From Candidatus Micrarchaeota archaeon (GTDB lineage Archaea; Micrarchaeota; Micrarchaeia; Norongarragalinales; UBA8480), in the NCBI GenBank assembly GCA_043805855.1, contig JAZDHP010000005.1, positions 1,132 through 65,131 of the forward strand: a DNA stretch of 64,000 bases. The letters are read 5' to 3'. Below the pieces are notes generated by a model that did not search any database, had not been told where the DNA came from, and saw nothing but the letters and a program-made list of their open reading frames with translations. The number at the start of each line of letters is the position of its first letter. Position 1 is the first letter of the stretch. Positions 23,525 to 42,468 of this stretch are shown here, piece after piece. Both the position numbers and the translations under genes were made by a program.

Positions 23525-24228
23525 AAGTTGTTTTGGTTTGGAACGAGCACCCGACTGAAGTTGTTGCGGGTTTCCATGCGAGGAAAGTTGCCGAAATTCT
23601 GAAAAATAAATACGGACACGACGTTGTAATTGAAAAAATTCCAGTTGCCGAGACTAACTATGGCATAATTAGAAATGGAAAGGGAAACAAAGCAAATCAA
23701 TTGCTTGCGCTTAGAGATTCTATAGATTTTTTTCCAAAAGATCCAAGTGGCACAAAGTTTATGTTTAATTTCCACGCTGCACCCGCAGAAAGAATAGGAA
23801 AAAGCACACAAATGCCAGCTAGACTTTTCAAGGTGAGTCATAAAAGATGGCAAGATAATCTTGAAAGATTTGCAACTGAAATTACAATAATTAAAGGAAA
23901 AGGCCGCCAATATGCAATTGAAATGCCTGGATATTTCACTCGCATCCCGGGAAACGCTTATAGAAAAATGCTAGAACAAAAACGAGAATTTGAAACTAAA
24001 GAAAGATCAAAAATTGATAGAAAAATCAGCGCTGGAACATACACCGCTAGAGACATACTTAAGCTAATGGAATTTGCAACTGCAACGCAAAACACTTACA
24101 CTATACAAAGAACCGCACTTCATACTAAAAGACAAAAGAAATTTTTGTCAAGCGACGTTTCCAAAAAAATCGCAGCAGCGATTCACGAGAGAATCAACGC
24201 CAGTAATACCAAACCGCGTAGAACGTAA
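23518..24228 (+). CDS. Paralog family A member 1 (MAKVVLVWNEHPTEVVAGFHARKVA... / ...KIAAAIHERI). Putative metal-hydrolase-like N-terminal domain.
   Basis: 236 aa. One of four paralogs, with 28486, 52914 and 53627. Conserved HxxE (NEHPTE), FNFH, IE(M/L)PG and a C-terminal S.KIAAAIH. A TATA-like gtaatataaaaag lies ~30 nt upstream. Confidence 0.7.
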   Translation: MAKVVLVWNEHPTEVVAGFHARKVAEILKNKYGHDVVIEKIPVAETNYGIIRNGKGNKANQLLALRDSIDFFPKDPSGTKFMFNFHAAPAERIGKSTQMPARLFKVSHKRWQDNLERFATEITIIKGKGRQYAIEMPGYFTRIPGNAYRKMLEQKREFETKERSKIDRKISAGTYTARDILKLMEFATATQNTYTIQRTALHTKRQKKFLSSDVSKKIAAAIHERINASNTKPRRT

Positions 24229-24688
24229 CCAGTCCAATTATGAGCGTTAACCGAAAGAGCACGTCGTGCAGTGGGACAAAAGCAGCTGTACCAAAACTAT
24301 TAATTGTAAACGCGATGCGAGCAGCGTTGAACAGCAAAAAGAAAACCACGCCAACAACAATTCCTTTTATTCTATAGTTGACGCTCCTATCTGCGCTGGC
24401 AGAAATAAAGCCAATTAACAACGCTAGCTCTAAAGCGCCGGAGCACAAGTCGCTAATTTCAATATCTCCACCTGGAATGAGCAAATGAGGAAATAACGGA
24501 GAGCCGGTGAAAACTAGCGAAGCGGATTTTCCAAGGAGCGTGAGGAAGAATTGTGCACCGCGTGCGGCAATTTCGTGGAGGAAAGTTGTGAACGTGAACA
24601 AAAAGTAAAGCGGAACTGCTATTGCAGCGGTTGTCACGATGAATTTAACTGCTTTTTGCAAATCATTAATTGCCATAGCTCTAATCAT
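24194..24688 (-). CDS. Mini archaeosortase/exosortase-like membrane protein
   Basis: 164 aa, about 5 TM segments. A Cys-Ser-Gly motif (DLCSGAL, C82), an Asn-x-x-Arg (FNAARIAF, R124) with Cys-to-Arg spacing of 42 aa, about the 41 aa I recall between the catalytic Cys173 and Arg214 of Haloferax ArtA. The family call is weak. Confidence 0.4.
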   Translation of the reverse strand: MIRAMAINDLQKAVKFIVTTAAIAVPLYFLFTFTTFLHEIAARGAQFFLTLLGKSASLVFTGSPLFPHLLIPGGDIEISDLCSGALELALLIGFISASADRSVNYRIKGIVVGVVFFLLFNAARIAFTINSFGTAAFVPLHDVLFRLTLIIGLVTFYAVWYYWR

Positions 24689-27908: not shown

Positions 27909-28145
27909 ATGGTAATGTTAAGTGTTGAGGTGTACGGCGTCACTGAACAGGTTCTAAACGACTTGGTACTTGCAGGTTACGCTAAAACCAAAACAGAAGC
28001 AGTGAGACAGGCAATTATTCATCTAGGCCAGGAACTTAACTTATTACGCAGCAAAAAACGAACCGAAGATGAGGAATGGCAAGAATTTGCTGCAAGAGAA
28101 GCCTTAGGGGACTGGGACGATGCAAGAAAATTATTCAAGTTTTAA
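27909..28145 (+). CDS. Putative antitoxin of the MazF-type module
   Basis: 78 aa, acidic C-terminus (EDEEWQEFAAREALGDWDD). Overlaps the toxin gene start by 26 nt. Confidence 0.45.
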   Translation: MVMLSVEVYGVTEQVLNDLVLAGYAKTKTEAVRQAIIHLGQELNLLRSKKRTEDEEWQEFAAREALGDWDDARKLFKF

Positions 28146-28476
28146 ACAAGGCGATATTGTTATCATGAAAATGCAATTCTCTACTTTTGAAGAGGCAAAG
28201 ATAAGGCCCGCTCTCGTCATCAGCTCAAATACATATAACCAACACGGCGAAGACATAATACTATTGAAAATAACCTCGCATGGAAAAGATAGACCATATA
28301 GCGTGCCAATCGCACAAAACGATTTGGTCTCAGGTACACTTAACTTAGATAGCTTTGTAAAAGCCGATTTTCCAATTACTGTAAAAAAGGATAAATTATT
28401 CAAAACAATTGGCAAAGTAAGCCCAAAAATCGTGCAACAAACAAAAGAAAAGCTAAAACAAATATTAGAACTGTGA
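28120..28476 (+). CDS. MazF/PemK-family endoribonuclease toxin
   Basis: 118 aa. KQGDIVIMKMQFSTFEEAKIRPALVISS...EDIILLKITSH...SVPI...SFVKADFPITV matches the PemK/MazF signature (GDIV...K.RPALVIS...ITS...V.I). Confidence 0.7.
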   Translation: MQENYSSFKQGDIVIMKMQFSTFEEAKIRPALVISSNTYNQHGEDIILLKITSHGKDRPYSVPIAQNDLVSGTLNLDSFVKADFPITVKKDKLFKTIGKVSPKIVQQTKEKLKQILEL

Positions 28477-28485: not shown

Positions 28486-29193
28486 ATGGCAAAGGTTGTT
28501 TTGGTGTGGAATGAACATCCAACTGAAGTTATTGCAGGACACCACTGCCGGCAAGTTGCAAAACTCTTACGTGAAATGGGACACGAAGTTATTGTAAAGA
28601 AGATAGCCGCTCGCGACACAATATACGGAACAGTACAACACGATAATTACGCAGCTGCTGGGAAAAAATTACTAAACACAAAGCCAACCGCAGAGATTAC
28701 TGAAGAGTTTGCAAAAAATTTTAATGCAATTACTTTTAATTTTCACGGCTATGCTGCAACTGCTTTACGGCGGTATCGAGCTAAAAAACCAGAAAGATTA
28801 AAGATAAAAGAAAAGTTAGGCAAAAGCTCCTTGATAATACGTGGCGATATATGCTTTTATAGAATTTCACCGCATGCGTTTGCAATTGAAATTCCAGGCA
28901 TTATGGAAAAATTGCCAAGAGAAAAAAGAGCGGTTCAAAAAGAACGATTAAACCAAGCGCTATACGGGGCAATCAAAGCAAAGGAAAGGGCAAACGTAGG
29001 CAAATCATTATTAAAACGAATCGGGGATCATTCAATGCAAATGGATCAAATACTAAACACGACTGACGCTAAGTATCACCTAAACCGCATGCCAATGAAT
29101 TTGCCAGCACAGCAGAATTTTAAATCTCCAGTTATTTCTGAAAAAATCGCAGCTGCTATACACGAGCGGCTTACTTCGCAACGCGTAAAGTGA
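28486..29193 (+). CDS. Paralog family A member 2
   Basis: 235 aa. MAKVVLVWNEHPTEVIAGHHCRQVA...FNFHGYA...FAIEIPG...SEKIAAAIHERL. Confidence 0.7.
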   Translation: MAKVVLVWNEHPTEVIAGHHCRQVAKLLREMGHEVIVKKIAARDTIYGTVQHDNYAAAGKKLLNTKPTAEITEEFAKNFNAITFNFHGYAATALRRYRAKKPERLKIKEKLGKSSLIIRGDICFYRISPHAFAIEIPGIMEKLPREKRAVQKERLNQALYGAIKAKERANVGKSLLKRIGDHSMQMDQILNTTDAKYHLNRMPMNLPAQQNFKSPVISEKIAAAIHERLTSQRVK

Positions 29194-29231: not shown

Positions 29232-29639
29232 TTGGTAACTTTTCAAATGGCTGAAACAAAACGTAGACTCGCTAAACCCAAATTACCAAGAACATTGGCG
29301 CTAGACGAACCAAGCGAATTCGAAAAAGTATTAGACGCAGCTAGGTATTTTGAAAGACACCGTGTGTTTAGCCACAGCTTACTAACTACACATCCACAAT
29401 TAGCAGTTGCAATACACGAAGCAGCTATGCGTAAAAGAATCAAAACCGCGCATCTACTCGAACTTGGAAAACACTTTTTTGATTTATCCCAACACGAAGA
29501 ACAAATTCACGAAATTCTCGCAACAGCAGAAAACAAAATAGTACAAGGGAAAAAAACACCTGCAGTGTTTAAGGAGATGCGCGAAGCAATTAGCCAACTT
29601 CACAAAAAGCACAGCCATCCAGCTAGAACCTGGTGCTAA
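29232..29639 (+). CDS. Small protein carrying a degenerate RH...LxxLGxHF module
   Basis: 135 aa. RHRVFSHSLLTTHPQLAVAIHEAAM...LLELGKHFFDLSQHEEQ parallels RHGWLPGPLKKAI...LREIGNHFVTISDVQ. Confidence 0.45.
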   Translation: MVTFQMAETKRRLAKPKLPRTLALDEPSEFEKVLDAARYFERHRVFSHSLLTTHPQLAVAIHEAAMRKRIKTAHLLELGKHFFDLSQHEEQIHEILATAENKIVQGKKTPAVFKEMREAISQLHKKHSHPARTWC

Positions 29640-29835
29640 CAAAGAAGAAAAATTAAAAAAACTACGCTTGCTTTGAAGTGAAAAGCAAAAAACAGTACAA
29701 AAATAGCTATTATAGCAATTCTGAACAGCATTGTAAATAATTGACAGAATTGCTAGTTGCAATACGCGTTACATAAGCTAAAAAAACTCAGCGTATTGCT
29801 TTAATATATTGCCGCTGTTGTTTTTCTAGATTTTT

Positions 29836-32109
29836 ATGACTGGCGAGTTCGTTATCAAGCAAGAGGGCAGCAAGCGTTTACTAATTATTGACTATAAAGG
29901 CGCGAGCGTTGCCCCAGACATTGCACTTTACCCGCAGGTAATGCGCGACGTTATTGAAAAGTTACAAACAAACGACGCAGACGAAGTTGTACTAGCTGAA
30001 TATTATGAGAGAATTTACAACGCTGAACAAACGTCAATGCTACGCGGAATAGCAGATTTAATTACAAAGATGGAAACTGAAACAGTTTGGAGTCCATCGC
30101 ACTTAGGCGGGGAACACAGTGACAAGAAAACTATCGCAGCGCGGCACGATGCTGTACTCGCAATTGTTAACCAAACGTACGTTGACCCGTTCACTGCTTA
30201 TCTCGAGTTAATAAAATTAGTAAAAGAAGGCGCTGGCAGTTATGCAAAGGCGCAAAGTGCTGGCGATGAAAAGGCTCTTGAAGATTTCAAAATTTTCCTC
30301 GGCACACTGCAGTTCATGAAAAGTTTGTTCGACAACACGTCGTTGATAAAAAAGAGCAAGCAATACCTGGCACAAATTGGTAAGATGCCAGAAGGCCGAG
30401 CGATTTACCACTCAATGTTCGAAAGCGCAATCAAACCGTCATTCATCGGGAGTAGGATTTTCTTCACTGGCGCGGAAACATTAGAGTTAGTTGACCAGTA
30501 CGAAGTGCTCGGCTCAAAAGTTTACATCTATAAACATCCGGAAAAAATCGAGTACCTTTACTACATTAACCCGCCAGAGTACACACTTTCGCCGGATAAA
30601 TACTTCCTCCTCCAGAAGACAAAAGAAGTTGTCGCGGGACATCGGCCAACTAATGTTGGGTTCATGGATATGGGTCAAGCGCGTAAATACTTTAGAAAGA
30701 TTTACGTTGCAACAATTGCAGATATTGCTAACAAGAACGATATTAAATTAACAGTAGACGAAAAAGAAGAGTTGGCAACAATTGTCTCGCGGTATACAAT
30801 TGGCTACGGTATTTTGGAACTGCTACTTTCAGACCGGCAGCTTACTGACGTTTACATTGACTCTCCACTGGGAGACAAGCCAATTTATTTAGTGCACTCA
30901 AAGTACGGACAGTGCCAGACGAACATTATTTTCTCTGAAGAAGAGGCAAAGGCAACTGTTTCGCGTTTCAGAGCTTTGTCAGGACGGCCGTTTGACGAAG
31001 CGCACCCGATTCTTGATTTTGACTTGGCTGATTTGCAAACTCGTATTGCTGCTATTGGAAAGCCACTTGCAGTTGACGGCACAGCGTTTGCGTTGCGTTT
31101 ACACAAGGACACACCGTGGACATTATCGCAGTTCGTAGATTTCAAAATGATGCCAGCATTGGCAGCAGGGCTCCTATCTTACTTCGTAGATGCACAGGCA
31201 TCGATGTTAATAGTCGGCTCTCGTGGTTCTGGAAAGACATCTCTCCTCCAGGCAATGATGCAGGAAATCCCGCAAAACTTGAGGATTATTGTGCAGGAAG
31301 ACACCCAAGAATTACCAATCCCGCAGTTGAAGCAACTTGGCTTTAATGTACAGCGTCTAAAAACACGACCGCCGCTTGGAGCGCAAAGTGACGCTGAAGT
31401 AAGTGCAGAAGATGCGCTGCGTACTGCACTGCGTTTAGGAGATTCAGTGTTAATTGTCGGCGAAGTACGTTCAGGAGAAGCAAAGGCGCTCTATGAGGCC
31501 ATGCGTGTCGGCGCAGTTGGAAACGTCGTCATGGGAACAATCCACGGCGAAAGCGCATATTCAATTTGGGACCGAGTAGTAAACGACTTAGGGGTTCCAA
31601 CAACTTCGTTCAAGGCAACTGACATGGTCATAGTTACAGCACCTATACGATTCAAAGGCTCTCTCAAGAGACAACGTCGTTTAGTTGAAGTTACTGAAGT
31701 TAAAAAAGAATGGACTGAAGACCCAGGAAAGGAAAATGGTTTCTTAAACTGGATGTTGTTCGACGCACACAAGGATAACATGGAGTTGTTCAGAGACGAC
31801 ATTAAGCAAAGCGAATGGATAAAGAAAGTCATGCGCAACCGCGGTATAAATTACGAAGACATCTGGAGCGAAATTGTAACCCGCGCTGCAAGCAAACAAC
31901 ATTTAGTCGACGTGAAGAACAAGCACAATATTCCAAAAATCCTCGAGGCAGAGAACAGTATACGCGCACACACGAAGTTAATGATGCTAGGCGAACGCCA
32001 GCGCGAGGAAAACGGCAAAGTTGACCACAAAGAGTTATTGTCAGAGTGGCAAAAGTGGGTCGACACCGTACTCGCGAAGGAAGTAATTGGATTAAAAACA
32101 CTGGGTTAA
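29836..32109 (+). CDS. Type IV pilus/archaellum-type secretion ATPase (FlaI/TadA/GspE superfamily)
   Basis: 757 aa. Walker A VGSRGSGKTSLLQAMM, Walker B/Asp box DSVLIVGEVRSGE, His box TIHGES. First gene of the pilus-like locus. Confidence 0.85.
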   Translation: MTGEFVIKQEGSKRLLIIDYKGASVAPDIALYPQVMRDVIEKLQTNDADEVVLAEYYERIYNAEQTSMLRGIADLITKMETETVWSPSHLGGEHSDKKTIAARHDAVLAIVNQTYVDPFTAYLELIKLVKEGAGSYAKAQSAGDEKALEDFKIFLGTLQFMKSLFDNTSLIKKSKQYLAQIGKMPEGRAIYHSMFESAIKPSFIGSRIFFTGAETLELVDQYEVLGSKVYIYKHPEKIEYLYYINPPEYTLSPDKYFLLQKTKEVVAGHRPTNVGFMDMGQARKYFRKIYVATIADIANKNDIKLTVDEKEELATIVSRYTIGYGILELLLSDRQLTDVYIDSPLGDKPIYLVHSKYGQCQTNIIFSEEEAKATVSRFRALSGRPFDEAHPILDFDLADLQTRIAAIGKPLAVDGTAFALRLHKDTPWTLSQFVDFKMMPALAAGLLSYFVDAQASMLIVGSRGSGKTSLLQAMMQEIPQNLRIIVQEDTQELPIPQLKQLGFNVQRLKTRPPLGAQSDAEVSAEDALRTALRLGDSVLIVGEVRSGEAKALYEAMRVGAVGNVVMGTIHGESAYSIWDRVVNDLGVPTTSFKATDMVIVTAPIRFKGSLKRQRRLVEVTEVKKEWTEDPGKENGFLNWMLFDAHKDNMELFRDDIKQSEWIKKVMRNRGINYEDIWSEIVTRAASKQHLVDVKNKHNIPKILEAENSIRAHTKLMMLGERQREENGKVDHKELLSEWQKWVDTVLAKEVIGLKTLG

Positions 32110-32161
32110 AACAACTTATTTAAAAACTCGTTTACAGTAAACTACTTTAGGTGAAAACTTT

Positions 32162-32719
32162 ATGCCGCAACGAAGACTGAAGAGAAACGAATTAAGCTCT
32201 GGAGAAATTAGACACTTGTTAACTACTACGAGACACCCGGTTGGACTAGCTGATACAATAGCTAAAGAACGGGGGCCAAAAGCAGCGAGTAAGTTATTGT
32301 TAATAGCTGAACAACAGACAAAAGCACCTTGGTTAAAAGCGCATACAAATTACTGGCCACGCGTAGGCGGTGCGGCTTTTCACACTAGTAATTATTTTGA
32401 GCGCGCTGGGCAGCATAAAGAAGGAGCTGCACTTTTATCTACATTTGGACAACATGTTGTAGCTGCAAGACTACTTGAAAAAGGTGGACACACTGAGCTA
32501 GCTGCAAAAGCGCATGAAAAAGCTGCTCGCGTTTGGCTAAAAGAAAGAAAATATTACCAAGCCGCTCACGCTTTTGAAAAAGCTGGAAAGCTTTTAGATG
32601 CCATGACCGCGTATAAAAGAGACGCTGCAAATGCAAAAAACCCAATAGACCAAGAGGAGTCACTTAACGAGGCAGCTAGACTTGCAAAAGTAACAAAAAG
32701 CCGATGGCAAAGAAAATAG
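32162..32719 (+). CDS. TPR-like helical repeat protein
   Basis: 185 aa. Repeated A/K/E-rich helical hairpins (ELAAKAHEKAARVWLKERKYYQAAHAFEKAGKLLDAMTAYK). Shares a PW(H)LKA motif with the next two genes. Confidence 0.45.
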   Translation: MPQRRLKRNELSSGEIRHLLTTTRHPVGLADTIAKERGPKAASKLLLIAEQQTKAPWLKAHTNYWPRVGGAAFHTSNYFERAGQHKEGAALLSTFGQHVVAARLLEKGGHTELAAKAHEKAARVWLKERKYYQAAHAFEKAGKLLDAMTAYKRDAANAKNPIDQEESLNEAARLAKVTKSRWQRK

Positions 32720-33123
32720 CTAAGTTGAGCACAATGGCCGAACAACTTGAAAAGCCGTGGCACTTGAAAGCTGCAGAAAGTTTAGGCCGCAGCGTAACGC
32801 CTCTATTTTCTGGAAAAGGCAAGTTAAAAGGACATGTAGCTACGTCGCCGGCGTTTGCGCCCTATTCAATTAGTTTTGTTGTGGATAGCAGACATCCTAA
32901 AGCGCAAGTGGTTAAAATAATCAACGGACGCAGCAAACGCGCGTATGTTTCAATTTATCCTGATGGCAGATTTGGTTCTTTAGCGCAGGGCACTCTTGGA
33001 ATAAGAACTTTAGCTGAATTTACAAGAGCAGCGCCTAAATCAAAGTTACTTAGGGACGTCCCGCAGTTAATCGCAGCTGCGAGAGCGGCGAACAAAGCTT
33101 TAAAGCAACACGCGCCCAAATAA
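32704..33123 (+). CDS. Small conserved hypothetical, tandem paralog 1 (PWHLKAA...ALKQHAPK)
   Basis: 139 aa. Aligns end-to-end with 33128..33511. Confidence 0.55.
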   Translation: MAKKIAKLSTMAEQLEKPWHLKAAESLGRSVTPLFSGKGKLKGHVATSPAFAPYSISFVVDSRHPKAQVVKIINGRSKRAYVSIYPDGRFGSLAQGTLGIRTLAEFTRAAPKSKLLRDVPQLIAAARAANKALKQHAPK

Positions 33124-33127
33124 AATT

Positions 33128-33511
33128 ATGGCTGAAGAACCTTGGCATTTGAAAGCTGCTAGAAGTTTAAACGGTGCAGTGAAGCCGTTGCTTATACAAG
33201 ACCGCCGAGTTTATGGTCACAGTGTAGCATTATCTGAACAACCAGTGTACACTGTTAATTTTGCTGATGGAAAAACTAACGGAGTAGAAGGTGCAAAAAT
33301 TCAAAAAGTACACTTAGGGGTATCCAAACGGCTATTAACAGTTACAAGAAATGGCAAGATAAACTGTCGCGTACCGAAATTAACTGGAATAAAGACATTA
33401 GCTGCGTTGAAAAAAGTTGACCCTAGAAAAACTAGTTTGCATGACTTGCCTATTTTAATTAAAATTGCAACTGCAGCGCACGAAGCGTTGAAAGCACATC
33501 AGCCAAAGTGA
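33128..33511 (+). CDS. Small conserved hypothetical, tandem paralog 2
   Basis: 127 aa. EEPWHLKAARSL...LIKIATAAHEALKAHQPK. Confidence 0.55.
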   Translation: MAEEPWHLKAARSLNGAVKPLLIQDRRVYGHSVALSEQPVYTVNFADGKTNGVEGAKIQKVHLGVSKRLLTVTRNGKINCRVPKLTGIKTLAALKKVDPRKTSLHDLPILIKIATAAHEALKAHQPK

Positions 33512-33957
33512 AAAAAATGAACATTCCGGGACTTGAACGACATTTGGGAAGCGTTGAGCTGAACCAACTTTCAAGTACATTGCGGCGTTTAGCAAGTCGA
33601 TTACAAATGGAACAAGTTGACCTTACTCGACAGAATAGAGACTTGGCAACTAGAACACGTGGCGGGGCGTATTACGGCCCAGAAGAAAGAAGGCTAATTG
33701 TCCAAGCAAAAGAGCGTTTAAAAAAAGTAGAAACTGCATTTAGAGCTAGATTTACTCATCGTGGCGAACACCGCACAAAAGTATTTCGTCCATTTGTTGA
33801 AAAAGGTGCGACACACGCTGCTCTAGATATATCTAGCGAAAAAGTTCACTTTTACAAATTGCCAAAAGCACATGCAGGCAGAGTTTACGCGCCAATTGCC
33901 GGTAGCCAAAGATTGCCACTTTTCAAGGAAGTGAAGAAAAAGAGGGAATCAAAATGA
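33508..33957 (+). CDS. Small hypothetical, member of second tandem pair (IPGLE...HFY...P.AHAG)
   Basis: 149 aa. Shares N-terminal IPGLE and C-terminal (K)HFY..LP(K/E)(A/K)H(A/S)G..(Y/F).PI.G with the next ORF. Overlapping start and stop. Confidence 0.5.
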   Translation: MKKMNIPGLERHLGSVELNQLSSTLRRLASRLQMEQVDLTRQNRDLATRTRGGAYYGPEERRLIVQAKERLKKVETAFRARFTHRGEHRTKVFRPFVEKGATHAALDISSEKVHFYKLPKAHAGRVYAPIAGSQRLPLFKEVKKKRESK

Positions 33958-34283
33958 TCCCGGGACTTGAAAAGAAAATTGCAGTTGTGAAAAGAGCTAG
34001 TTTACCGGCTCGTGTTTTTGACGAATTAGTAGTTTTACAACAAACTCAAGCAATGCCAAGCAGAACAATGCGTTATAAAAGAATATTAGAAAGAGACTGC
34101 GCTAATTTAAAAAAAGCAGTTAGAGCAAGTAAAAAACACGCAGAAATTGCACCTGCTATTGCGCGAGGTTCAACTCACTTTTACCACACGCGAAACGGTT
34201 TGGTTTTTGTTAGACTTCCTGAAAAACATTCAGGCAAGGAATTCAAGCCAATAATTGGAAGAACTCGTTTTGCAATAGACTAG
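33954..34283 (+). CDS. Small hypothetical, second member of tandem pair
   Basis: 109 aa. Overlaps the previous gene by 4 nt. Confidence 0.5.
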   Translation: MIPGLEKKIAVVKRASLPARVFDELVVLQQTQAMPSRTMRYKRILERDCANLKKAVRASKKHAEIAPAIARGSTHFYHTRNGLVFVRLPEKHSGKEFKPIIGRTRFAID

Positions 34284-34335
34284 CTCCCCGACGTTACAAC
34301 TAACATATTTATACTTAGTTTGAATTGTTATTGTC

Positions 34336-36423
34336 ATGCCAGTGAAGAAGGAAGTTAAGGGGCTTTACAGCGGAGACAAGCCAACAAAGCAGTACGCTGA
34401 AAAACCGCGCGTCGACTGGTTTGTTAAGTTCGTCAACTTTTCCAACAAATATTTCGACAGTCTTGGAAAAGGCGCGAAGTTAACTAAAGAACAGCGGGAA
34501 GTTTTTGAATTTCTAAACTATAGAATTACTGGCGAGCAGTTCCGCGCAGCTGAAATCGCCGCAATGTTTTTGGGTTTATTCGTAACTATTTTTGCAGTTC
34601 TCGTACTTGCAATTATTTTCGGAACAGGCAGCCCGCTCTTCTTGATAGGTTCGTTGCTGTGCTTTATGGCGCCATTAGCGGCGTTTATGCTAGTTGCATT
34701 TCACCCGCAGCAAGAGGCAAAACGCGAGCAAACAATGGCGCTTGGTTACCTTTCAGAAATTGTTAACTACATGGTTGCTAGTATGCGACTTACTCCCAAC
34801 TTGGAAAAGGCCGTTGAGTTCACTGCATCGCATGGCCGCGGTAAAATCGCGGAGGACATGAAAAAGTTAATTTGGGACGTGCAAATTGGAAAATATTTAT
34901 CAGTTGAAGAGGGGCTTGACGACTTAGCGTACCGCTGGGGAAAGTACAACGAGGATTTCAAGCAAGCGCTGATGTTAATTCGCTCGAGTTTACTTGAGTC
35001 CGACGACGCAAAGCGCGAAATACTCCTAGAAAAAGCATCGGCCGATGTTCTTGAAGGCAGTAAGGAAAAGATGGACCAGTTCGCTCGCGCGCTATCGCAG
35101 CCAACTGTATATTTGTATTACTTTGGCGTGTTGCTACCGCTAATGCTCGCAATTGTGCTGCCAATTGGCGGAACGCTTTCAGGCGGCGATTTTCCACTAG
35201 CTCGTCCAGAGATACTTGCTTTGATTTACATTGTTGCGCTGCCAATTGGAATTTACTTCCTTGGGATTAACATCTTGGGCAACAGGCCGCCGACGTACAT
35301 TGCGCCTGACATTAAAGAAGATTACCCCGGGCTTCCAGCAAAAGGAACAATGAGAATTCTCGGCGCCGAACTTCCAGTTTTGCCAATTGCGTTGCTCGTA
35401 CTAATAGCTGTACTTGGCGCTGGTTTTTACCTAGATCAAATAATTACAGTTGCACCGCTAGAGCTTTACGAAAAAGCTGAAGCGCTAGCTGCGATGCCAC
35501 ACATTGAACTTTTTGGGGTACCGCCATCTGAACTATTTCTAGGACTATTTTCGCTATTAGGAGTAGTTGTTGGGCTCGGTTTTGCAATTTCAATTTACTT
35601 GTACGGCACTTACATCGCTAGGAAGAAAGTGCAAGATGAAATCCGCGCAATGGAGCGGGAGTTTAAAGACGCGATTTACGTTCTGGCAAGTCGACTTGGT
35701 GAGAACCGTCCGCTTGAAGACGCGTTGAAGTATGCAGTTGCGTTTCTTCCAAACAGTAAAGTTGCAAGTAAAGTTTTTAGAAAGATTCTCGACAATGTAA
35801 CAACAATGGGAATGACAATAGACGAAGCTGTGTTTAACCCGCAGTTTGGAGCGTTGAAAAACTTACCGTCAAAAACAATTCAAAGCGGAATGCGAATTAC
35901 AATTGACTCAATTGGACTCGGGGTAAACGTTGCGGCAAAGTCGCTCATTGGCTTAGCTTTACAGTTGAGAAACAGTGAAAAAATTGACTTACTTTTGAAC
36001 AACTTACTATCAAGCGTTACTCAGATGTTAAAAACAATGGGCACTTTCATCGCGCCAATCGTGCTGGGAGTAGTGACGAGTTTACAAGGAGTAATTGTAA
36101 AGGCAATGTCTTCAAACTGCGCTGACACACCAGCAACTTCAACTTCACCTGGCGTTTCGGGTTTTGGTGGCGCGAGTAATTTAAGTTCAATGTTCTGCAG
36201 TAAAACCGGCGAAGCAAATAGTTCAACTGACCCCGCTACGTTTACATTCATAATGGGAATATACGTACTTGAAGTCGTGATTCTACTTACTTATTTCAAC
36301 TCGCAAGTTGAAGACTCAAATAACAAGTTACACACGTACATTGAAATTGCAAAGGCGCTTCCAATCGCTACACTTATATTTGCCGCAGTGGCGTATTTTG
36401 CAGGGACAAGCATAGGCGTATAA
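34336..36423 (+). CDS. Polytopic membrane platform protein, TadC/FlaJ (T2SS-F)-like
   Basis: 695 aa with at least 8 hydrophobic helices in two blocks separated by soluble helical domains. Sits directly downstream of the ATPase and upstream of the pilin genes. Assignment is by architecture and context, with no diagnostic motif. Confidence 0.6.
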   Translation: MPVKKEVKGLYSGDKPTKQYAEKPRVDWFVKFVNFSNKYFDSLGKGAKLTKEQREVFEFLNYRITGEQFRAAEIAAMFLGLFVTIFAVLVLAIIFGTGSPLFLIGSLLCFMAPLAAFMLVAFHPQQEAKREQTMALGYLSEIVNYMVASMRLTPNLEKAVEFTASHGRGKIAEDMKKLIWDVQIGKYLSVEEGLDDLAYRWGKYNEDFKQALMLIRSSLLESDDAKREILLEKASADVLEGSKEKMDQFARALSQPTVYLYYFGVLLPLMLAIVLPIGGTLSGGDFPLARPEILALIYIVALPIGIYFLGINILGNRPPTYIAPDIKEDYPGLPAKGTMRILGAELPVLPIALLVLIAVLGAGFYLDQIITVAPLELYEKAEALAAMPHIELFGVPPSELFLGLFSLLGVVVGLGFAISIYLYGTYIARKKVQDEIRAMEREFKDAIYVLASRLGENRPLEDALKYAVAFLPNSKVASKVFRKILDNVTTMGMTIDEAVFNPQFGALKNLPSKTIQSGMRITIDSIGLGVNVAAKSLIGLALQLRNSEKIDLLLNNLLSSVTQMLKTMGTFIAPIVLGVVTSLQGVIVKAMSSNCADTPATSTSPGVSGFGGASNLSSMFCSKTGEANSSTDPATFTFIMGIYVLEVVILLTYFNSQVEDSNNKLHTYIEIAKALPIATLIFAAVAYFAGTSIGV

Positions 36424-36502
36424 TACACAGCTAAAGTGACATTATACCAATCAATAGCTACTTGGAAACGCTTTTATAAAACCGCTGCTAATTGTAGTAC
36501 AG

Positions 36503-36985
36503 GTGATATTTGTGCAGTTTAGGAAAAGACGCGGTCAAGCTTTCGAGACGATGATGTTAGTTATCAGTGTAATCGTAGCGCTTGCAATTTTAGGTGTGCT
36601 TCTAGGTATTTTAAACACGTTTAGTTTTAGCGGGAGTGACGCGGAGCAAGTGTTTAAAGAAGAGTTGAAAAAAGTCGGGGGAAGTTATTCTCCAGGTTCA
36701 ACACCTAGAGATGCAACTATGAAAGCGGGAAAAATAATCAACGCTCGCGTAGTAACTGAAGACACGACAATTTTAGAAGAGTCAGTTAAATTTGTAGTAG
36801 CAAATGAATTAGAGAGCTCAATAGCCACTGTCGAGGGAGGAGTAAGAGCTACAAAAGACGTTACAGTTACTTTTTCAGTGTGTGGCGACCCAACACTTGG
36901 AAATTCAGGCACTTACGTAATTAGCATTGCTCCGGTAACGCGAGGTACAATTGCAATAGATGCTTGTTTAGCCGCTCTTGGTTAA
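36503..36985 (+). CDS. Pilin-like protein with class III (type IV prepilin-like) signal peptide
   Basis: 160 aa. MIFVQFRKRRGQ|AFETMMLVISVIVALAILGVLLGI: basic n-region, [KR]G[QA] cleavage-like site, then a hydrophobic stretch. Confidence 0.6.
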   Translation: MIFVQFRKRRGQAFETMMLVISVIVALAILGVLLGILNTFSFSGSDAEQVFKEELKKVGGSYSPGSTPRDATMKAGKIINARVVTEDTTILEESVKFVVANELESSIATVEGGVRATKDVTVTFSVCGDPTLGNSGTYVISIAPVTRGTIAIDACLAALG

Positions 36986-37010
36986 ACCTGAAAGTTAAAG
37001 GAATTGAAAT

Positions 37011-37229
37011 ATGAAACTTTTTTCTTTTTTTAAAAACCGAAAGGGCGCTAGTGACTGGTCTTCAATCTACTTGCTGATTGTTGTTATCATTGGCGTCATT
37101 TTGTTGGTTACTCTTATAAAACCAACTTTGAAAGCAGCCGGTCAATCTGCAGTTGCAGGCGGTCAAGAAGCAAAGACAATCGCGGGCATTGGAACTTACT
37201 TCTTGTCAAAGGCACGGCGTCCAAAATAA
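37011..37229 (+). CDS. Minor pilin-like small protein (class III signal peptide)
   Basis: 72 aa. MKLFSFFKNRKGA|SDWSSIYLLIVVIIGVILLV. Confidence 0.5.
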   Translation: MKLFSFFKNRKGASDWSSIYLLIVVIIGVILLVTLIKPTLKAAGQSAVAGGQEAKTIAGIGTYFLSKARRPK

Positions 37230-37366
37230 GGCAAACCACATGAACAAACTGCTATTAGTTGGAATGGCGCTCTGACTACGTGTGGTCAAAAGCGCAGAAA
37301 GCTGTTGTTGAACAGTTTTGACAAAACACTGGAAAAAGCGGTGAGAATAAAAGCAATAAATAGCTA

Positions 37367-38056
37367 ATGGTAACCATGTATAGACGTGGCCAAGCTAGTG
37401 GACCAATTGAACTTGTCGTTGCAGTTATTATTCTAGTTGCGAGCATGAGCTTGGCGTTTATCGTTATGCAAAGCACTAGCGACGCCCAGTGTATTGACAA
37501 GCTGAAGAGTCAAATGCGTGACTTGAACAGCGTAATGATTGACGTTTCTCTAGGTTCTCCTTCTACGTCGCGCGAAGCTAATGTTGAACTCGCTAGTTGC
37601 GGCGGGCAGAGCATTGAAGGAGTTAGAATTGTTTATTTTGAAAACGCACTTTATTGTGGCGCTTGCGGTGCAACTGAAAAAGGTTGCTGGATGATACAGC
37701 CGATAACTTACGATAAAACTGCAAACATATATGGAATTTCTCTACACGCTTCGACTTGCATAAACATGCCGGGCGGCATTGTACTAGAGCAAGATTTAAA
37801 TTGCGACGACGATATTTTAACACCTGGCGAAGTTAGTGCTACAGCTTGTCCATCAAACATTGGAGCGCGAAGTACAAACGATCAAAACTGCGGGTTACCT
37901 CCAGATATAGCAACTTCAAGCACAACTAAATTATTAACAATGTCAAAAGAACCTGGCGAAACCCAGTACAAAGTTAGAATTACAAAAGGGTTTTCAACCG
38001 CAGCTAATGAACCAATGCTTAACGTGTGCTTTTTAAAAAAGGGGCGTAGTTCATGA
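37367..38056 (+). CDS. Pilin-like protein (class III signal peptide), Cys-rich globular domain
   Basis: 229 aa. MVTMYRRGQA|SGPIELVVAVIILVASMSLAFIV. Confidence 0.6.
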   Translation: MVTMYRRGQASGPIELVVAVIILVASMSLAFIVMQSTSDAQCIDKLKSQMRDLNSVMIDVSLGSPSTSREANVELASCGGQSIEGVRIVYFENALYCGACGATEKGCWMIQPITYDKTANIYGISLHASTCINMPGGIVLEQDLNCDDDILTPGEVSATACPSNIGARSTNDQNCGLPPDIATSSTTKLLTMSKEPGETQYKVRITKGFSTAANEPMLNVCFLKKGRSS

Positions 38057-38673
38057 AATCCGCACAAATTGAACTATTTATGCTGACGAAAATGGCAATG
38101 CTATTTTTTATCATTTCACTAGCGTTCATCGCGTTGAACATAAGTAACATGGAAAAAGAAGCTCTATGCGGAGAGCAGGCGCTGTCAACTGCAAAGATAA
38201 TTTCCTCTAACATTAACCAAGCTCTCAACGCGGCAGTTGAAGATAGTAGAACTGTTTACAAATTCGAACCTACAATTTCAACTAGCCGTGAACGATATTC
38301 TCGCTATGTGATTTGGCTAGCTGAACGGGAAACACCAGGAAATGACCGAGTTCAGTTAAGCGTAGTTGTAAAGCCAGAAAGTGAACCCAACTGCATGCGC
38401 AGGGTAAGCGTAGTTTATGACAAAAATAAAATTAAAACAAATTTCGCACAAGATACTAACCCAAAATCACTAGATCCCACTATTAGCCCTGGCGAACAAG
38501 TGTTTGTAATTGAACCAACCAACCGCGAAACTCCATCTAAATTTTTAGTTATTGTAAAATGCAGGGATAAACTTCTACCTCAACAAAGTTACCTCTTTTT
38601 TGACGATTGTAAAAGCAGCAACCCAAGTTCATGCAGCACACTTGAGCCACCAGCATATGATGCGTGTAAATGA
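38053..38673 (+). CDS. Pilin-like protein (class III-like signal)
   Basis: 206 aa. MKSAQ|IELFMLTKMAMLFFIISLAFIAL. Overlaps neighbours by 4 nt. Confidence 0.5.
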   Translation: MKSAQIELFMLTKMAMLFFIISLAFIALNISNMEKEALCGEQALSTAKIISSNINQALNAAVEDSRTVYKFEPTISTSRERYSRYVIWLAERETPGNDRVQLSVVVKPESEPNCMRRVSVVYDKNKIKTNFAQDTNPKSLDPTISPGEQVFVIEPTNRETPSKFLVIVKCRDKLLPQQSYLFFDDCKSSNPSSCSTLEPPAYDACK

Positions 38674-39245
38674 AAATGATGAAAAAACGTGGTTTTATTG
38701 GCCCGCTTGGCGATGACATTCCAAGCATCTTTCCAATAGTTGCCGGCATGTTACTTTTCATCAGCACTATACTTTACGTAAACGCACAAGTTGACACTAG
38801 AAATTTAGACTTGCGTCAAAAAGAAGCAACTCAAAAACTCGCTTACCTCGCAACGCAAAAAGCTTCTTTTCAAATCGGAGAGTTCGACAGCTTGTGCGAA
38901 AATGCACTGCAGCCATTTGCCGAGAATAACGGTTTGAAATTCGCAATTGTAATAAAACGGTTCTGCAACCAAGGCTGTCTAACGTGCACTAAAGGCATAG
39001 ATTTACAAAATTCAAACGCTTTTAACGAGGATGAAATGATAACCAACTCCAATGACTTCAATAAAAATTACGTTTGTACAAATGAAAAGCCAGAAGTTGC
39101 TCTAGAATACGCCGCAGCGAGAGCTAGTAAAGCCGCTGCTCCGAAGAACACAATTACTTTAATTTATCCATTTACCGTACCGTGTCCAGATTATGATTCG
39201 TCTAACAATGGCTTGGCAACGTTGAATGTATTAGTGTGGAAATAA
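38670..39245 (+). CDS. Pilin-like protein (class III signal peptide)
   Basis: 191 aa. MKMMKKRGF|IGPLGDDIPSIFPIVAGMLLFISTILYV. Confidence 0.55.
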   Translation: MKMMKKRGFIGPLGDDIPSIFPIVAGMLLFISTILYVNAQVDTRNLDLRQKEATQKLAYLATQKASFQIGEFDSLCENALQPFAENNGLKFAIVIKRFCNQGCLTCTKGIDLQNSNAFNEDEMITNSNDFNKNYVCTNEKPEVALEYAAARASKAAAPKNTITLIYPFTVPCPDYDSSNNGLATLNVLVWK

Positions 39246-39266
39246 AGTAGAAGAGAAAAATAAAAA

Positions 39267-39989
39267 ATGAAAAAAGCACAGGCAGCAGTGTTTGACGGCA
39301 TCATGTTTCTACTTTTAGTTAGCTTTTCAGTTACGCTTATGTTTTCTTTTCTCTCAGATTATGGCAACGCCCAGGCTAAAACTTTGCAAAGTAGTCACAC
39401 TTTAAACTACGTACAAGGAATTGGTAAAGCGCTTTACACTTTGGATGTTTCAATGTTACAGAGCACGGACTTGGACACGCTGGGCAACTCATGGAACTAC
39501 GAAAATTGCGATACACTTGAAAAGTTTAAATCCAACGCAGTTTCTGATTTAATCAAGCGAGATATAAGCGATGGTTTTTTTAACAATAAGTTTGGCGATA
39601 GCGATGACATAAGCAACGCGCCTGGCAAACTTGCACTGCGCTGTGCTTTGTTTGAGTTAATGAAACCAGTTACAGGTAGTGGTTACGACTATTTAGCAGA
39701 GGTGCTAGATGGAGATAGAAGTCCAAGATTTGCGCCGTTTCCAATAATAAATTCTCCTCAAAATCGCGTTGATTTGGAGCCAGTGTTGGTGACAAATTTA
39801 CCTACGAGCGATTCAATTTACTTCGCTGCTGAAGAAAGCGGGTGCGATAGCGTTTCCCGTACGCTAAAAGGAAAGCAACTAATGGCTGTAGCGACGCCGT
39901 TTCGTGTTTTCGACAAAGACGGAGGGGCGCATGACCACCAGCTACGTATATGCATGTGGCCAAGCGAAAGAATCAACAACAACCCCTAA
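39267..39989 (+). CDS. Pilin-like protein (class III signal peptide)
   Basis: 240 aa. MKKAQA|AVFDGIMFLLLVSFSVTLMF. Confidence 0.55.
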   Translation: MKKAQAAVFDGIMFLLLVSFSVTLMFSFLSDYGNAQAKTLQSSHTLNYVQGIGKALYTLDVSMLQSTDLDTLGNSWNYENCDTLEKFKSNAVSDLIKRDISDGFFNNKFGDSDDISNAPGKLALRCALFELMKPVTGSGYDYLAEVLDGDRSPRFAPFPIINSPQNRVDLEPVLVTNLPTSDSIYFAAEESGCDSVSRTLKGKQLMAVATPFRVFDKDGGAHDHQLRICMWPSERINNNP

Positions 39990-40025: not shown

Positions 40026-41099
40026 ATGGCTAAAGAAGAATTGGAAAAGGCAAGGAAAGCACTAGAAAAAATGCCTAGACACGGCTGGCTGCCTGTACCT
40101 TTGAAAATAGCGCTTTGCAAAAGTCACCTGGATGGCGAAATAACTTCAGCTGAATTAAATTCACTCGGGGAACACTTTGTCACTATTGAAGACCCAAAAG
40201 ACGCGCAAGACATGTTGAAAAGCGCAACTGAACAATTACAAACCACTAACGCCAGAGTTGTGTTTTTAAATTTACATAGAGAAGCTGAAAAACTTGCCCT
40301 TCAAGTTAAAGCAATTAAAAACGCACCAGCTAATGATAGACTTTTCGTTGAAACAGTTGACCGCGATTCAAGACAAAAGTTAGAAATTCTCCCGCTAGAT
40401 TTACTTAATGAACTTAAAGCTGGGTTTGCTGAAAAAAAGCTAGATAAACTCGAGCTTGAAAACGCACGCTACGCGACTAACTTTTTCATTACCTTAGCAA
40501 GGGTAATTCCAAGCCCCTCAACCGCCGCGAAAATCCCCCCCACTTGGAGAAACGCAGTAACCGCAATTGCAAATAAAACAATGGAAATTCCCGAAGTTGA
40601 AGGTAAAGCTAGATACTTACACCGCGCGTTAACTTACATTGCCTATTGCGAAAAAGATTTACCTTTTTGGCACCGGCCTTTGACTCCTCAAGATGCAGTA
40701 CATATTGAAAACTTTGCAAAAGCACAAACCGCGCGGCTTGGAACACGGCACATTTCACCAACTACTTTAAGTGAATTACTTTACGTAAAAGGAATTAAAC
40801 CAAGGGACAAATATGGCCGCACAATTAAACTAAATGGTAGAATGACTTTGAAACATGCAGATATATTTAAACGAGAAATTGAACGTAGGCTTGACCCAAT
40901 TCACTTTAAAGTGCGAGTTGCACAAACTACATTAGAACCAAAGGCAAAAAGAAACATAGAAGTAACCGCACTTAGCTCAGAAGGCGACGATTTCTTAAGT
41001 GAAATAAAAACCCCAATATATCGAAGAAGGGTGGCTTTAACATTTAAAAAAATTACTAGACCTTTGTGGCCAAGGGCAAAAAGAGCAGAATTTAATTAA
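40026..41099 (+). CDS. Paralog family B member 1 (RHGWL module at N-terminus)
   Basis: 357 aa. KMPRHGWLPVPLKIAL...LNSLGEHFVTIEDPKDAQ, and C-terminal LDPIHF. Confidence 0.65.
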   Translation: MAKEELEKARKALEKMPRHGWLPVPLKIALCKSHLDGEITSAELNSLGEHFVTIEDPKDAQDMLKSATEQLQTTNARVVFLNLHREAEKLALQVKAIKNAPANDRLFVETVDRDSRQKLEILPLDLLNELKAGFAEKKLDKLELENARYATNFFITLARVIPSPSTAAKIPPTWRNAVTAIANKTMEIPEVEGKARYLHRALTYIAYCEKDLPFWHRPLTPQDAVHIENFAKAQTARLGTRHISPTTLSELLYVKGIKPRDKYGRTIKLNGRMTLKHADIFKREIERRLDPIHFKVRVAQTTLEPKAKRNIEVTALSSEGDDFLSEIKTPIYRRRVALTFKKITRPLWPRAKRAEFN

Positions 41100-41130: not shown

Positions 41131-42468
41131 ATGGCAGAAAAAGCAACACCCCTTGAAGAATATTTCGGGTCGATGTCGCGTCATGGTTGGCTTCCTGGCC
41201 CGTTGAAAAAGGCTATTTTCCGCGATTTAGCTGGCAGGCCAGGAACGGCAAAAACGCTACGCGAAATTGGCAACCACTTTGTAACAATAAGCGACGTACA
41301 ACGCGCTCAACCAACAATCACACGAGCAACCCAAATGCTAGCAACACACGGCGCACAAAAAGCGCTACAACACCTGCTAACCGAAACAAAAAAACTAGCG
41401 GCAACTATTCCTTCCCCATTGCCAACTGCAGCTTCAACTGTCAACGCAACAGCAACACGTGCTGCAGCAGCTAAAATTCCACGGCCAAGCGAAAGTCCAA
41501 CTGAACCAACAACAGCTAGAATTCCTAGACCTGGAAATAACCCGCCAGAGTCAAAATCTCTTGTTGGCGGGGTTTCAGTTGTGGAGCTTGAAAAAATAAA
41601 ACCAGTTAGACGTGAAATTCCAATTACAACAGTAGCATATCAAGTTGTACCGTTTGGACAAGAACCTTGGTTCTTGCATGAAACTGAAGCACCAAAGCCA
41701 AAGCTATTACACCAAGCACAACCTTATGCACATGCACTATACCTGCGAGACACGCGCCCAGAAGCACAAGCAACTTTAGAACAATATTTACCAGCACCGC
41801 TATTAGATGAAATTAAAACAGCATATGCCCGCGGTTTGCTTGATAGAAAACTACACGAACCAGGCGATGAATACCACGAAAACGTTTTTCACGAAATAGC
41901 TGACTACTTAGATTATGGCAGTCATAACTCAAACACTTCAAACCATAAACCGCAATGGACTGCCTTATTGCACGCCGTTCTACAGCGAGTTGATAGACAA
42001 AGAAGCACGCGGCACAAAGTAGATTATCTACTTAGCGCATTGAACCGCACGGCTGCAACTGCCAACTTAGAAAACCCATTTGAACTTGGCCTTATAGAAG
42101 CTTTAACAAAAGCGCATGAAAAAGAACTAGGCGTTAGAGGCAAACACATTTCGTCATACGATTTACGCTACTTACTCTACGACGAAGGGTATGCCGTAGC
42201 ACCCCGCAGTGAAGCAGCTAGCATTTCAATCAAACATCCACTAAACACAAAAACTAACCGAATAACAGCGGCGCAATTACAAACTCATCTAGACCCAGTA
42301 CATTTTAGCATACAACGAAATGGGAGAAATGAAGTTTCAATACACGCCAACACAATGGAAGGCGTCGCGTTTATAGATCGAATGGAACTACTGAGAGGAA
42401 AAAGCTTAAGTTTAAGACGCCGCGTAGCTCGCTTGGGCAAAATGGCAAGTCTAAAATTCGGCAAGTAA
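41131..42468 (+). CDS. Paralog family B member 2
   Basis: 445 aa. MSRHGWLPGPLKKAIFRDL...TLREIGNHFVTISDVQRAQP...THGAQKALQHLL, then a Pro-rich linker. The first ~250 nt are near-identical to 49767..50951. Confidence 0.7.
   Translation: MAEKATPLEEYFGSMSRHGWLPGPLKKAIFRDLAGRPGTAKTLREIGNHFVTISDVQRAQPTITRATQMLATHGAQKALQHLLTETKKLAATIPSPLPTAASTVNATATRAAAAKIPRPSESPTEPTTARIPRPGNNPPESKSLVGGVSVVELEKIKPVRREIPITTVAYQVVPFGQEPWFLHETEAPKPKLLHQAQPYAHALYLRDTRPEAQATLEQYLPAPLLDEIKTAYARGLLDRKLHEPGDEYHENVFHEIADYLDYGSHNSNTSNHKPQWTALLHAVLQRVDRQRSTRHKVDYLLSALNRTAATANLENPFELGLIEALTKAHEKELGVRGKHISSYDLRYLLYDEGYAVAPRSEAASISIKHPLNTKTNRITAAQLQTHLDPVHFSIQRNGRNEVSIHANTMEGVAFIDRMELLRGKSLSLRRRVARLGKMASLKFGK

Follow-up and report, generated by a model that had tools for sequence, protein, structure and literature searches.

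A type IV pilus-like locus in a Candidatus Micrarchaeota genome with a clade-specific insert between its ATPase and platform genes

The locus at positions 29836-39989 of the window (the whole stretch of 64,000 nucleotides analysed here, from contig JAZDHP010000005.1 of a Candidatus Micrarchaeota archaeon) encodes an assembly ATPase, a membrane platform protein and six prepilin-like proteins, with five small genes lying between the first two. It raises the question of which surface structure these genes build and whether the five small proteins belong to that structure. Type IV pili (T4P) are the leading candidate for host attachment and material exchange in DPANN archaea, and their parts are hardly known. 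An initial annotation had read the locus as a type IV pilus-like system other than an archaellum. All 13 of its open reading frames (ORFs) were recovered on the + strand at these coordinates, and the reading was borne out by a FlaI/TadA-like ATPase, a TadC/FlaJ-like platform and six prepilin-like genes. As a whole, the locus is probably a chromosomal operon that builds a non-archaellum type IV pilus and in which three families of small proteins (families A-C) form a clade-specific insert.

For comparison, 36 related loci (L001-L036) were fetched, and family hidden Markov models (HMMs) were built iteratively and mapped onto all of their ORFs. The closest relatives of the locus all came from metagenome-assembled genomes assigned to 'Candidatus Micrarchaeota/Micrarchaeia'. 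Together with the archaeal rRNA genes of the window, this places the sequence in a DPANN archaeon. The gene order platform-p8-p9-p10-p11-p12-p13 was fixed in at least 14 Micrarchaeota loci, with platform identities of 53-95%. Since the platform gene and the block of six prepilin-like genes recur in this order, the core of the locus is, as judged from gene content, an ordinary non-archaellum archaeal T4P operon, and such loci have previously been reported for Micrarchaeota. The genes are labelled g1 (ATPase), g2 (family A), g3 and g4 (family B), g5 and g6 (family C), g7 (platform) and p8-p13 (prepilin-like). The core genes are listed below; an arrow marks the predicted cleavage site, and the N-terminal motif conserved across orthologs follows that of the window.

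29836-32109, + strand: g1, secretion/pilus-assembly ATPase of the FlaI/TadA/GspE2 family, 757 aa (PF00437, PDB matches, motifs)
34336-36423, + strand: g7, polytopic membrane platform protein, TadC/FlaJ/T2SSF-like, 695 aa (hydrophobic segments, PF00482 matches of orthologs)
36503-36985, + strand: p8, prepilin-like, 160 aa; RG↓QAFETMMLVISVIVALAILGVLL, nearly invariant in 19 orthologs; conserved motif [KR]G↓QAFETMMLVISVIVA
37011-37229, + strand: p9, prepilin-like, 72 aa (~60 aa mature); KG↓ASDWSSIYLLIVVIIGVILLV, kept in 18 loci; conserved motif KG↓(A/S)(S/E)W..IY(L/M)L
37367-38056, + strand: p10, prepilin-like, 229 aa, 10 Cys; RG↓QASGPIELVVAVIILV, conserved; conserved motif [GAS]↓Q.S(A/G)PIEL
38053-38673, + strand: p11, prepilin-like, 206 aa, 6 Cys; KSA↓QIELFMLTKMAMLFFIISL; conserved motif K[GAS]↓Q[IL]EL
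38670-39245, + strand: p12, prepilin-like, 191 aa, 6 Cys, atypical acidic N-terminal segment; RG↓FIGPLGDDIPSIFPIVAGMLLF, 12 loci; conserved motif [GA]↓F(I/V)GP(L/I)GDDIPS(I/V)FPIV
39267-39989, + strand: p13, prepilin-like, 240 aa; KA↓QAAVFDGIMFLLLVSFSV, 11 loci; conserved motif [GA]↓QAA.FDGIMFL

The identity of the ATPase was confirmed by its match to PF00437 (T2SSE), with 80.6 bits against a cutoff of 24.9 (E = 1.2e-22). Its best solved relatives were GspE2 of A. fulgidus (2oap; E = 2.2e-33), CpaF (E = 6e-31) and FlaI (E = 4e-24). Because the alignment to these structures begins only at residue ~276-319, the protein carries an extra N-terminal region of ~290 residues. As read from the translation, its motifs are intact: Walker A GSRGSGKT (461-468), the Asp box region IIVQEDTQEL, Walker B VLIVGE (538-543) and the His box GTIHG. 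Full-length orthologs with 64-88% identity were present in 17 Micrarchaeota genomes. The ATPase gene adjoins the platform gene in many loci (L001, L003, L011, L027 and others), stands alone in L006, L008, L010, L013, L014 and L017, and is inverted and downstream of the pilin genes in L036. This scatter fits the modular evolution of archaeal T4P (Makarova, Koonin & Albers 2016, PMC4858521).

The window ATPase contains no intein, and many of its orthologs carry one or two (Pfam matches to Intein_splicing and LAGLIDADG_3). Intein-bearing forms were found in L013, L016, L019, L020 and L035 (~1257 aa), L033 (934 aa), and L014 and L017 (~1780 aa); the insertion sites lie near the Asp box (residues ~485-490), with further sites in L014/L017. 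Alleles of this gene thus vary in intein occupancy.

The prepilin-like genes were screened with a regular expression approximating FlaFind (a short basic leader and a [KRDE][GA(S)] cleavage motif, followed by a hydrophobic helix of ~20 residues). The class III signal pattern with a subsequent hydrophobic stretch was seen in five of the six ORFs (72-240 aa) and in only three other ORFs of at least 50 aa in the 64 kb. The sixth, p11 (MKSA↓QIEL), aligned with orthologs that bear the conserved motif given above. Each of the six cleavage motifs was kept across 11-19 orthologs, in sets drawn from up to 19 loci. These results support the earlier call of six consecutive genes with class III signal peptides.

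Within this block, p8 stands apart in its pattern of variation. Its N-terminal helix is almost invariant across all loci. The C-terminal domain varies more than any other part of the locus and does not follow the pattern of the neighbouring genes. Between L018 and the window, for example, the platform is 95% and p10 is 94% identical, and the p8 C-terminal domain is only 24% identical; the L018 domain is instead 56-61% identical to those of L020, L034 and L027. This pattern is typical of an exposed major subunit swapped by recombination, here between lineages. Given the invariant helix and the hypervariable, recombining C-terminal domain predicted to be exposed, p8 is the best candidate for the major pilin and most likely forms the filament body. 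An alternative candidate for the major pilin or a core subunit is p9; major pilins of clade 1 archaeal T4P are ~70 aa long (PMC4858521), and p9 is of similar size. The proteins p10-p13 are Cys-rich (4-10 Cys each), and their genes are packed with two ATGA overlaps; they most likely form an initiation/tip complex of minor pilins. A tip adhesin alongside major and minor pilins, as suggested in the initial annotation, is plausible.

The platform protein has 10 hydrophobic segments (counted as 19-mers), and 32 of its 36 orthologs matched PF00482 (T2SSF) at E ≤ 0.01, the best with E = 8.5e-10. In several sources, orthologs go by the name 'type II secretion system F family protein'. At least 234 homolog clusters were found, and those with a named source were all from Micrarchaeota or Norongarragalinales. 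A TadC/FlaJ-like platform, as proposed in the initial annotation, is thus supported by topology and by the orthologs; the window protein itself scored below the PF00482 cutoff (20.6 against 25.2 bits, residues 148-276).

Besides this sub-threshold score, several results weigh against the assignment of the core to a T4P machine. A second T2SSF domain in the platform was not supported by profile-profile comparison of residues 120-300 with 420-600 (hhalign, E = 0.14), and the platform profile matched no PDB sequence. With limits of E ≤ 1 for Pfam and E ≤ 0.1 for NCBIfam, none of the six prepilin-like proteins matched the curated pilin and archaellin families (PF04021, PF07790, PF01917 and the NCBIfam pilins). 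What makes them pilin-like is the architecture of the N-terminus, gene position and conservation, and not family membership. Furthermore, a screen of the multi-transmembrane (TM) ORFs in the 64 kb for the GxGD motif gave no candidate for a prepilin peptidase; these ORFs were YdjM-like, exosortase-like or without a Pfam match. The same gap had been seen in the initial annotation, and its description of the locus as complete is too strong for a locus with no peptidase gene. Such a gap is to be expected, since 'Ca. Mancarchaeum acidiphilum' Mia14 also encodes its single FlaK-like peptidase away from both of its T4P loci (Golyshina et al. 2017, PMC5498576).

Two proteins elsewhere in the window also have class III-like N-termini. 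One is a surface protein of 2426 aa with CarboxypepD_reg and Big_1 domains (14660-21940, - strand; EKG↓LPFPHLIVPLVLIL), and the other is a 495-aa protein (22037-23524, - strand; KKA↓FIAAPLIGTIIFV) conserved in L016 and L034. Both may be additional substrates for the prepilin peptidase.

The genes of the locus are closely spaced, though less uniformly than first described. By longest-ORF coordinates, 4-nt overlaps occur at four junctions (g4/g5, g5/g6, p10/p11 and p11/p12), and the remaining junctions show gaps of 4-137 nt or, once, a 16-nt overlap. The earlier statement that neighbouring genes overlap by 4 nt thus holds for g5/g6, p10/p11 and p11/p12, and the GTGA overlap at g4/g5 is probably an artefact. 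All members of family C begin with M(N/R)IPGLE and the NCBI product has 146 aa, so the true start of g5 is probably the ATG at 33517. In DNA of 42% GC, TATA-like A/T boxes (TTTAATATAT, TTATTTAAAA, TTTATAC and TTTTATAAAA) were observed in 29640-29835, 32110-32161, 34284-34335 and 36424-36502, ~18-40 nt before the starts of g1, g2, g7 and p8. These boxes hint weakly at several short-leader transcription units instead of a single operon.

Three slots in the locus were variable among relatives: between the ATPase and platform genes, between the platform gene and p8, and between p13 and a downstream Zn-ribbon gene. In the window, the first of these holds the following five small genes.

32162-32719, + strand: g2, family A, 185 aa, basic (pI 10.2), soluble, helical; homolog only in L020/L021/L025
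32704-33123, + strand: g3, family B copy 1 (PWHLKA), 139 aa; likely true start M11 at 32734
33128-33511, + strand: g4, family B copy 2 (PWHLKA), 127 aa
33508-33957, + strand: g5, family C copy 1 (IPGLE), 149 aa by longest ORF, 146 aa from the probable start
33954-34283, + strand: g6, family C copy 2 (IPGLE), 109 aa

The two tandem paralog pairs described earlier were confirmed: g3 and g4 share PWHLKA and 35% identity (E = 7e-21), and g5 and g6 share IPGLE and 23% identity (E = 5e-6). The description of g2 as TPR-like did not hold up, as its best helical-repeat matches were sub-threshold (E = 0.02-0.06; 14-15 bits against cutoffs of 27-29). All five proteins are basic (pI 10.2-10.9) and have no TM segment. 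The family A stretch KAPWLKAH (ARWLKK in L020) resembles the family B signature EPWHLKAA; this may reflect a common short motif or chance.

The distribution of these proteins is narrow. Families A-C were confined to relatives with a platform identity of at least 73%, and the only homolog of family A (38% identity, in the equivalent position) occurs in L020/L021/L025. When a g3+g4 profile HMM was scanned against 1.84 billion representative proteins, only six real clusters were recovered for family B, along with one spurious repetitive protein. Word-indexed searches returned g3 alone for g3 and only the six input sequences for the family C alignment, which leaves family C confined to the fetched loci. 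Identity within A-C is ~31-38% where the ATPase and platform are 80-87% identical, indicating much faster evolution than in the core. The content of the slot also changes, and the copy number of the small proteins varies from 0 to 5 even between close relatives:

Window: A, B, B, C, C
L018: B, B, B, C, C
L020: A, an orphan, B, C
L016 and L002: one B
L019, L026 and L034: one C
L001 and L027: no A-C, ATPase gene abutting platform gene

In the distant orthologous loci L003 and L011, the ATPase gene likewise abuts the platform gene with no A-C.

No above-threshold match to families A-C was found in Pfam, NCBIfam, PHROGs or PADLOC (one sub-threshold PHROG match, g4 with E = 0.086). An AlphaFold model of family B (pLDDT 80.5, moderate confidence) combines a six-stranded antiparallel sheet with two helices at the N-terminus and one at the C-terminus, and that of family C (pLDDT 74, moderate confidence) has a long helical hairpin and a small sheet. 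The family C model recovered only generic helical hairpins from the PDB, and that of family B had no match among viral structures at E ≤ 0.001. No similarity in sequence or fold was detected between families A-C and the known cytoplasmic accessories of T4P (FlaH/KaiC-like, FleN/MinD, TadZ, AapX/UpsX). The five proteins are thus lineage-specific and have no recognisable relatives, as initially proposed. A phage-derived or known-defence reading was also considered and set aside as unsupported, as PHROGs, PADLOC and NCBIfam gave no above-threshold match for families A-D (family D is described below).

A standing as an accessory set comparable to FlaC-H or AapX/F is not supported by the comparison of loci. 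Most orthologous loci have no A-C, the copy number varies and the slot can be filled otherwise; the conserved machine can therefore dispense with the small proteins. By these comparisons, the ATPase and platform genes enclose a variable slot, and the five small proteins in it are an insert that is clade-specific, dispensable and fast-evolving.

What this insert does has to be weighed between a role in the pilus and none at all. We lean, with moderate confidence, towards families A-C being cytoplasmic modulators or adaptors of the ATPase/platform pair, because their genes lie on the same strand with short gaps or overlaps, the A-B-C order is kept and family C always stands directly upstream of the platform gene, as seen in six distinct loci. 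In L020, the order is retained at ~35% identity compared with ~80% in the core. Lineage-specific uncharacterised cytoplasmic proteins are also a known feature of archaeal T4P loci (PMC4858521). A role in the pilus is nevertheless called into question by the absence of A-C from most orthologous loci and by further observations that would suit a less probable account, to which we still give some weight: A-C and family D would be passengers unrelated to the pilus, the junctions on either side of the platform gene would be insertion or recombination hotspots where fast-evolving orphan genes gather, and the core would work as in the relatives that lack them. The ATPase abuts the platform in L001, L003, L011 and L027, and is unlinked from it or inverted in the seven loci named above. 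In L033, the slot between the two genes contains an N6/N4 DNA methyltransferase together with an orphan of 235 aa, in L035 an ORF of 312 aa on the minus strand, and in L002 a protein of 400 aa whose N-terminus bears a membrane anchor; in L036, a Bro-N protein stands between the platform gene and p8. A distant homolog from the PWHLKA family B (P0127) has PIN/RHH and HerA/NurA genes as neighbours and no pilus gene close to it, family D is scattered over the window in at least seven copies, and the boxes before g2 and g7 weakly suggest separate transcription units. The structural models of families B and C, moreover, had no informative neighbour. On the other hand, passengers would hardly be expected to keep the A-B-C order and the adjacency of C to the platform gene despite divergence to ~30-38% identity, nor the common strand and minimal spacing. 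No mobile-element hallmarks surround A-C, the phage and defence libraries gave no above-threshold match, and the GC content of A-C resembles that of the surroundings. A bolder version of the modulator reading is improbable. In it, A-B-C would be a new clade-specific cytoplasmic adaptor set for the DPANN pilus motor, in which, for example, the family C hairpin couples the ATPase hexamer to the platform as FliJ/YscO do in type III systems and the B and C duplicates act as heteromers. The variable slots on both sides of the platform gene would, in addition, diversify together with the exchangeable exposed domain of p8 and form a host-range cassette.

The nature of the filament itself admits two other explanations. 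The machine could be a type IV filament system other than an adhesive pilus, either a short pseudopilus or a device for DNA uptake or transfer or for protein export that serves exchange with a host, with the basic small proteins handling nucleic acid or cargo. The strongly basic character of A-C would fit this, as would an ATPase about equally close to CpaF/TadA and FlaI; T4P of DPANN and CPR have been proposed to serve DNA uptake and host interaction (PMC9938205), and DNA exchange via T4P has been a subject of speculation (PMC5498576). However, a Pfam search of the locus gave no ComEC/DprA-like, nuclease or DNA-binding domain, the locus has no retraction ATPase, and a high pI is shared by many unrelated proteins of the window, such as family D and an orphan family (g00) described below. 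Six conserved pilins and a p8 with a hypervariable exposed domain also suit a surface filament better, and the pseudopilus or transfer device is highly improbable. A degenerate archaellum (motility) operon was suggested by the best NCBIfam match of the ATPase, which is to the FlaI model (E = 2.5e-43), and it is effectively refuted: the score against this archaellum equivalog (NF058587) was 148.6 bits, far below the cutoff of 550, and archaellin (PF01917), FlaH, FlaG/F and FlaC/D/E or FlaX were not detected among the 13 ORFs with Pfam or NCBIfam. Mia14, too, has no archaellum genes (PMC5498576).

A non-archaellum pilus remains the preferred reading, and its assembly could proceed along lines drawn from general knowledge of T4P, Tad and archaeal pili. 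The six prepilin-like proteins would be inserted into the membrane, and their short basic leaders would be cleaved after [KR][GAS] by an A24 prepilin peptidase whose gene lies in another part of the genome. A hexameric FlaI/TadA-type ATPase would then dock on the polytopic TadC/FlaJ-like platform, and ATP would drive the lifting of pilins from the membrane into a filament with p8 (alternatively p9) as its body and p10-p13 as minor pilins for initiation and the tip. In the cytoplasm, the small basic proteins A-C might modulate or adapt the ATPase/platform pair. An ectosymbiont would probably use such a pilus for attachment to host cells or surfaces.

Beyond p13, the locus is followed by members of family D and by the Zn-ribbon gene. 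Family D has at least seven members in the window and is marked by an N-terminal helical domain of ~90 aa with the motif PRHG/PRYS ... LH.A ... LG.HF, sometimes in tandem. The copies and the neighbouring gene are as follows.

40026-41099 and 41131-42468, + strand: two family D paralogs, 357 and 445 aa, between p13 and the Zn-ribbon gene
29232-29639, + strand: short family D member, 135 aa, just upstream of the ATPase gene (HMM E = 1.4e-25)
5482-6378 (- strand), 7109-8125 (- strand) and 49767-50951: further family D copies, that at 7109-8125 being fused to an FHA domain
42482-44509, - strand: membrane protein with a C-terminal Cys-rich Zn-ribbon and four TM segments, 675 aa, convergent neighbour of the pilin block, no Pfam match

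In relatives, family D was also found in the slot between the platform gene and p8 (L018, L019, L020 with three copies, L033 with two copies, and L034). An assignment of its N-terminal domain to ankyrin or TPR repeats was not accepted, since the profile matched PDB sequences only weakly (designed TPR, E = 0.011; ankyrin, E = 0.18 and weaker). Homologs of the Zn-ribbon gene directly follow p13 or the D genes in L003, L009, L016, L020, L028, L029, L034 and L035 and adjoin the platform gene in L036, which makes nine loci in all. Zn-ribbon membrane proteins have been tied to some archaeal T4P loci (PMC4858521). Beside this gene lies an ORF of 1354 aa (44894-48958, + strand) with no Pfam match, conserved in L028, L029 and L036. 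The Zn-ribbon protein and the 1354-aa ORF may be further parts of the pilus system. The initial annotation took in neither the conserved Zn-ribbon neighbour, just outside its coordinates, nor the membership of the two genes after p13 in a multi-copy family that occupies the same variable slots in relatives.

Several other genes of the window were recorded. A PemK/MazF toxin with a small upstream ORF lies at 27909-28476, and an exosortase/archaeosortase-like membrane protein at 24194-24688 (- strand), upstream of LeuRS and conserved in L033 and L034. Members of an orphan family of four paralogs (g00) lie at 28486-29193, 23518-24228 and 52914-54319. Archaeal 23S and 16S rRNA genes occupy the minus strand at 56452-60704 and 61332-63768, and their spans of 4253 and 2437 nt compare with models of 2987 and 1478 positions. 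LAGLIDADG endonuclease ORFs lie within the rRNA genes (58015-58575, 62398-62931 and 56954-57619), and another (55952-56518) overlaps the 3' end of the 23S gene. The excess length and the internal endonuclease ORFs indicate that the rRNA genes contain several introns.

The comparison of loci yields a conserved eight-gene core with a Zn-ribbon neighbour, and a concrete candidate for the major pilin with signs of diversifying exchange. The small proteins emerge from it as optional add-ons and not as motor parts, and the junctions of the platform gene as variable slots. If A-C do bind the motor, they would represent a new type of T4P regulator; otherwise, they would be orphan passengers. In either case, the core locus is expected in Micrarchaeota genomes, and the A-C insert is a minor clade-specific variation on it.

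The locus shares features with several known systems. The archaellum has an ATPase (FlaI/ArlI) and a platform (FlaJ/ArlJ) homologous to those of the window. Accessory genes of the archaellum adjoin its ATPase gene, and the initial annotation drew its analogy for the small proteins from this arrangement. The window locus differs in having no archaellins, FlaH or FlaG/F, and its small proteins are dispensable across orthologous loci, whereas every archaellated archaeon has FlaC-H (PMC4858521).

The bacterial Tad/Flp pilus resembles the locus in the alignment of CpaF to the ATPase (E ~ 6e-31), a T2SSF-like platform, a very short pilin (p9 recalls Flp) and the absence of a retraction ATPase. The parts of the Tad/Flp pilus include CpaF/TadA, TadB/TadC, Flp and the pseudopilins TadE/F, and the window differs in encoding one fused platform protein of 695 aa. 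The TadZ/CpaE, secretin and TadD of bacterial Tad are missing from the window locus, and its pilins bear archaeal class III signal peptides instead of the Flp motif G/XXXXEY.

A parallel to the variable slots is offered by pilA of Pseudomonas aeruginosa, where a conserved pilus operon has variable accessory genes next to it and strains exchange the exposed part of their major pilin. The pilA-linked accessory genes are said to fall into the tfpO/tfpW-Z groups (Kus and co-workers, in 2004). They have roles in pilin glycosylation or stability and adjoin the pilin gene. Families A-C, in contrast, lie between the ATPase and platform genes, and only family D adjoins p8.

Among the window pilins, four of six have Q at position +1, which resembles the EppA substrates reportedly described by Szabo and co-workers in 2007. 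The pilins differ from those of euryarchaeal T4P in having no Pfam or NCBIfam match to DUF361/Class_IIIsignal, Pilin_N or archaellin, and the ATPase differs in its N-terminal extension of ~290 aa. In its general layout, the locus is close to the 'grand plan' of euryarchaeal T4P, in which an ATPase/TadC module is combined with major and minor pilins (PMC4858521). Shared features are a VirB11/FlaI-type ATPase, a TadC-like platform, several neighbouring pilin genes, and lineage-specific cytoplasmic and Zn-ribbon proteins. Multi-pilin ATPase/TadC operons are typical of archaeal T4P, their ATPase/TadC and pilin modules evolve semi-independently, and major pilins of ~70 aa are known from the Epd pili of M. 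maripaludis (PMC4858521).

The nearest counterpart in the same phylum is Mia14, for which families A-C are not mentioned (PMC5498576); these families are restricted to a narrow subclade. Compared by description, its T4P are likewise clusters of ~8-9 genes for an ATPase, a platform and pilins, with the peptidase encoded elsewhere, and its two loci, MIA14_0170-0177 and MIA14_0252-0260, are common to many Ca. Micrarchaea, in an organism that has no archaellum (PMC5498576).

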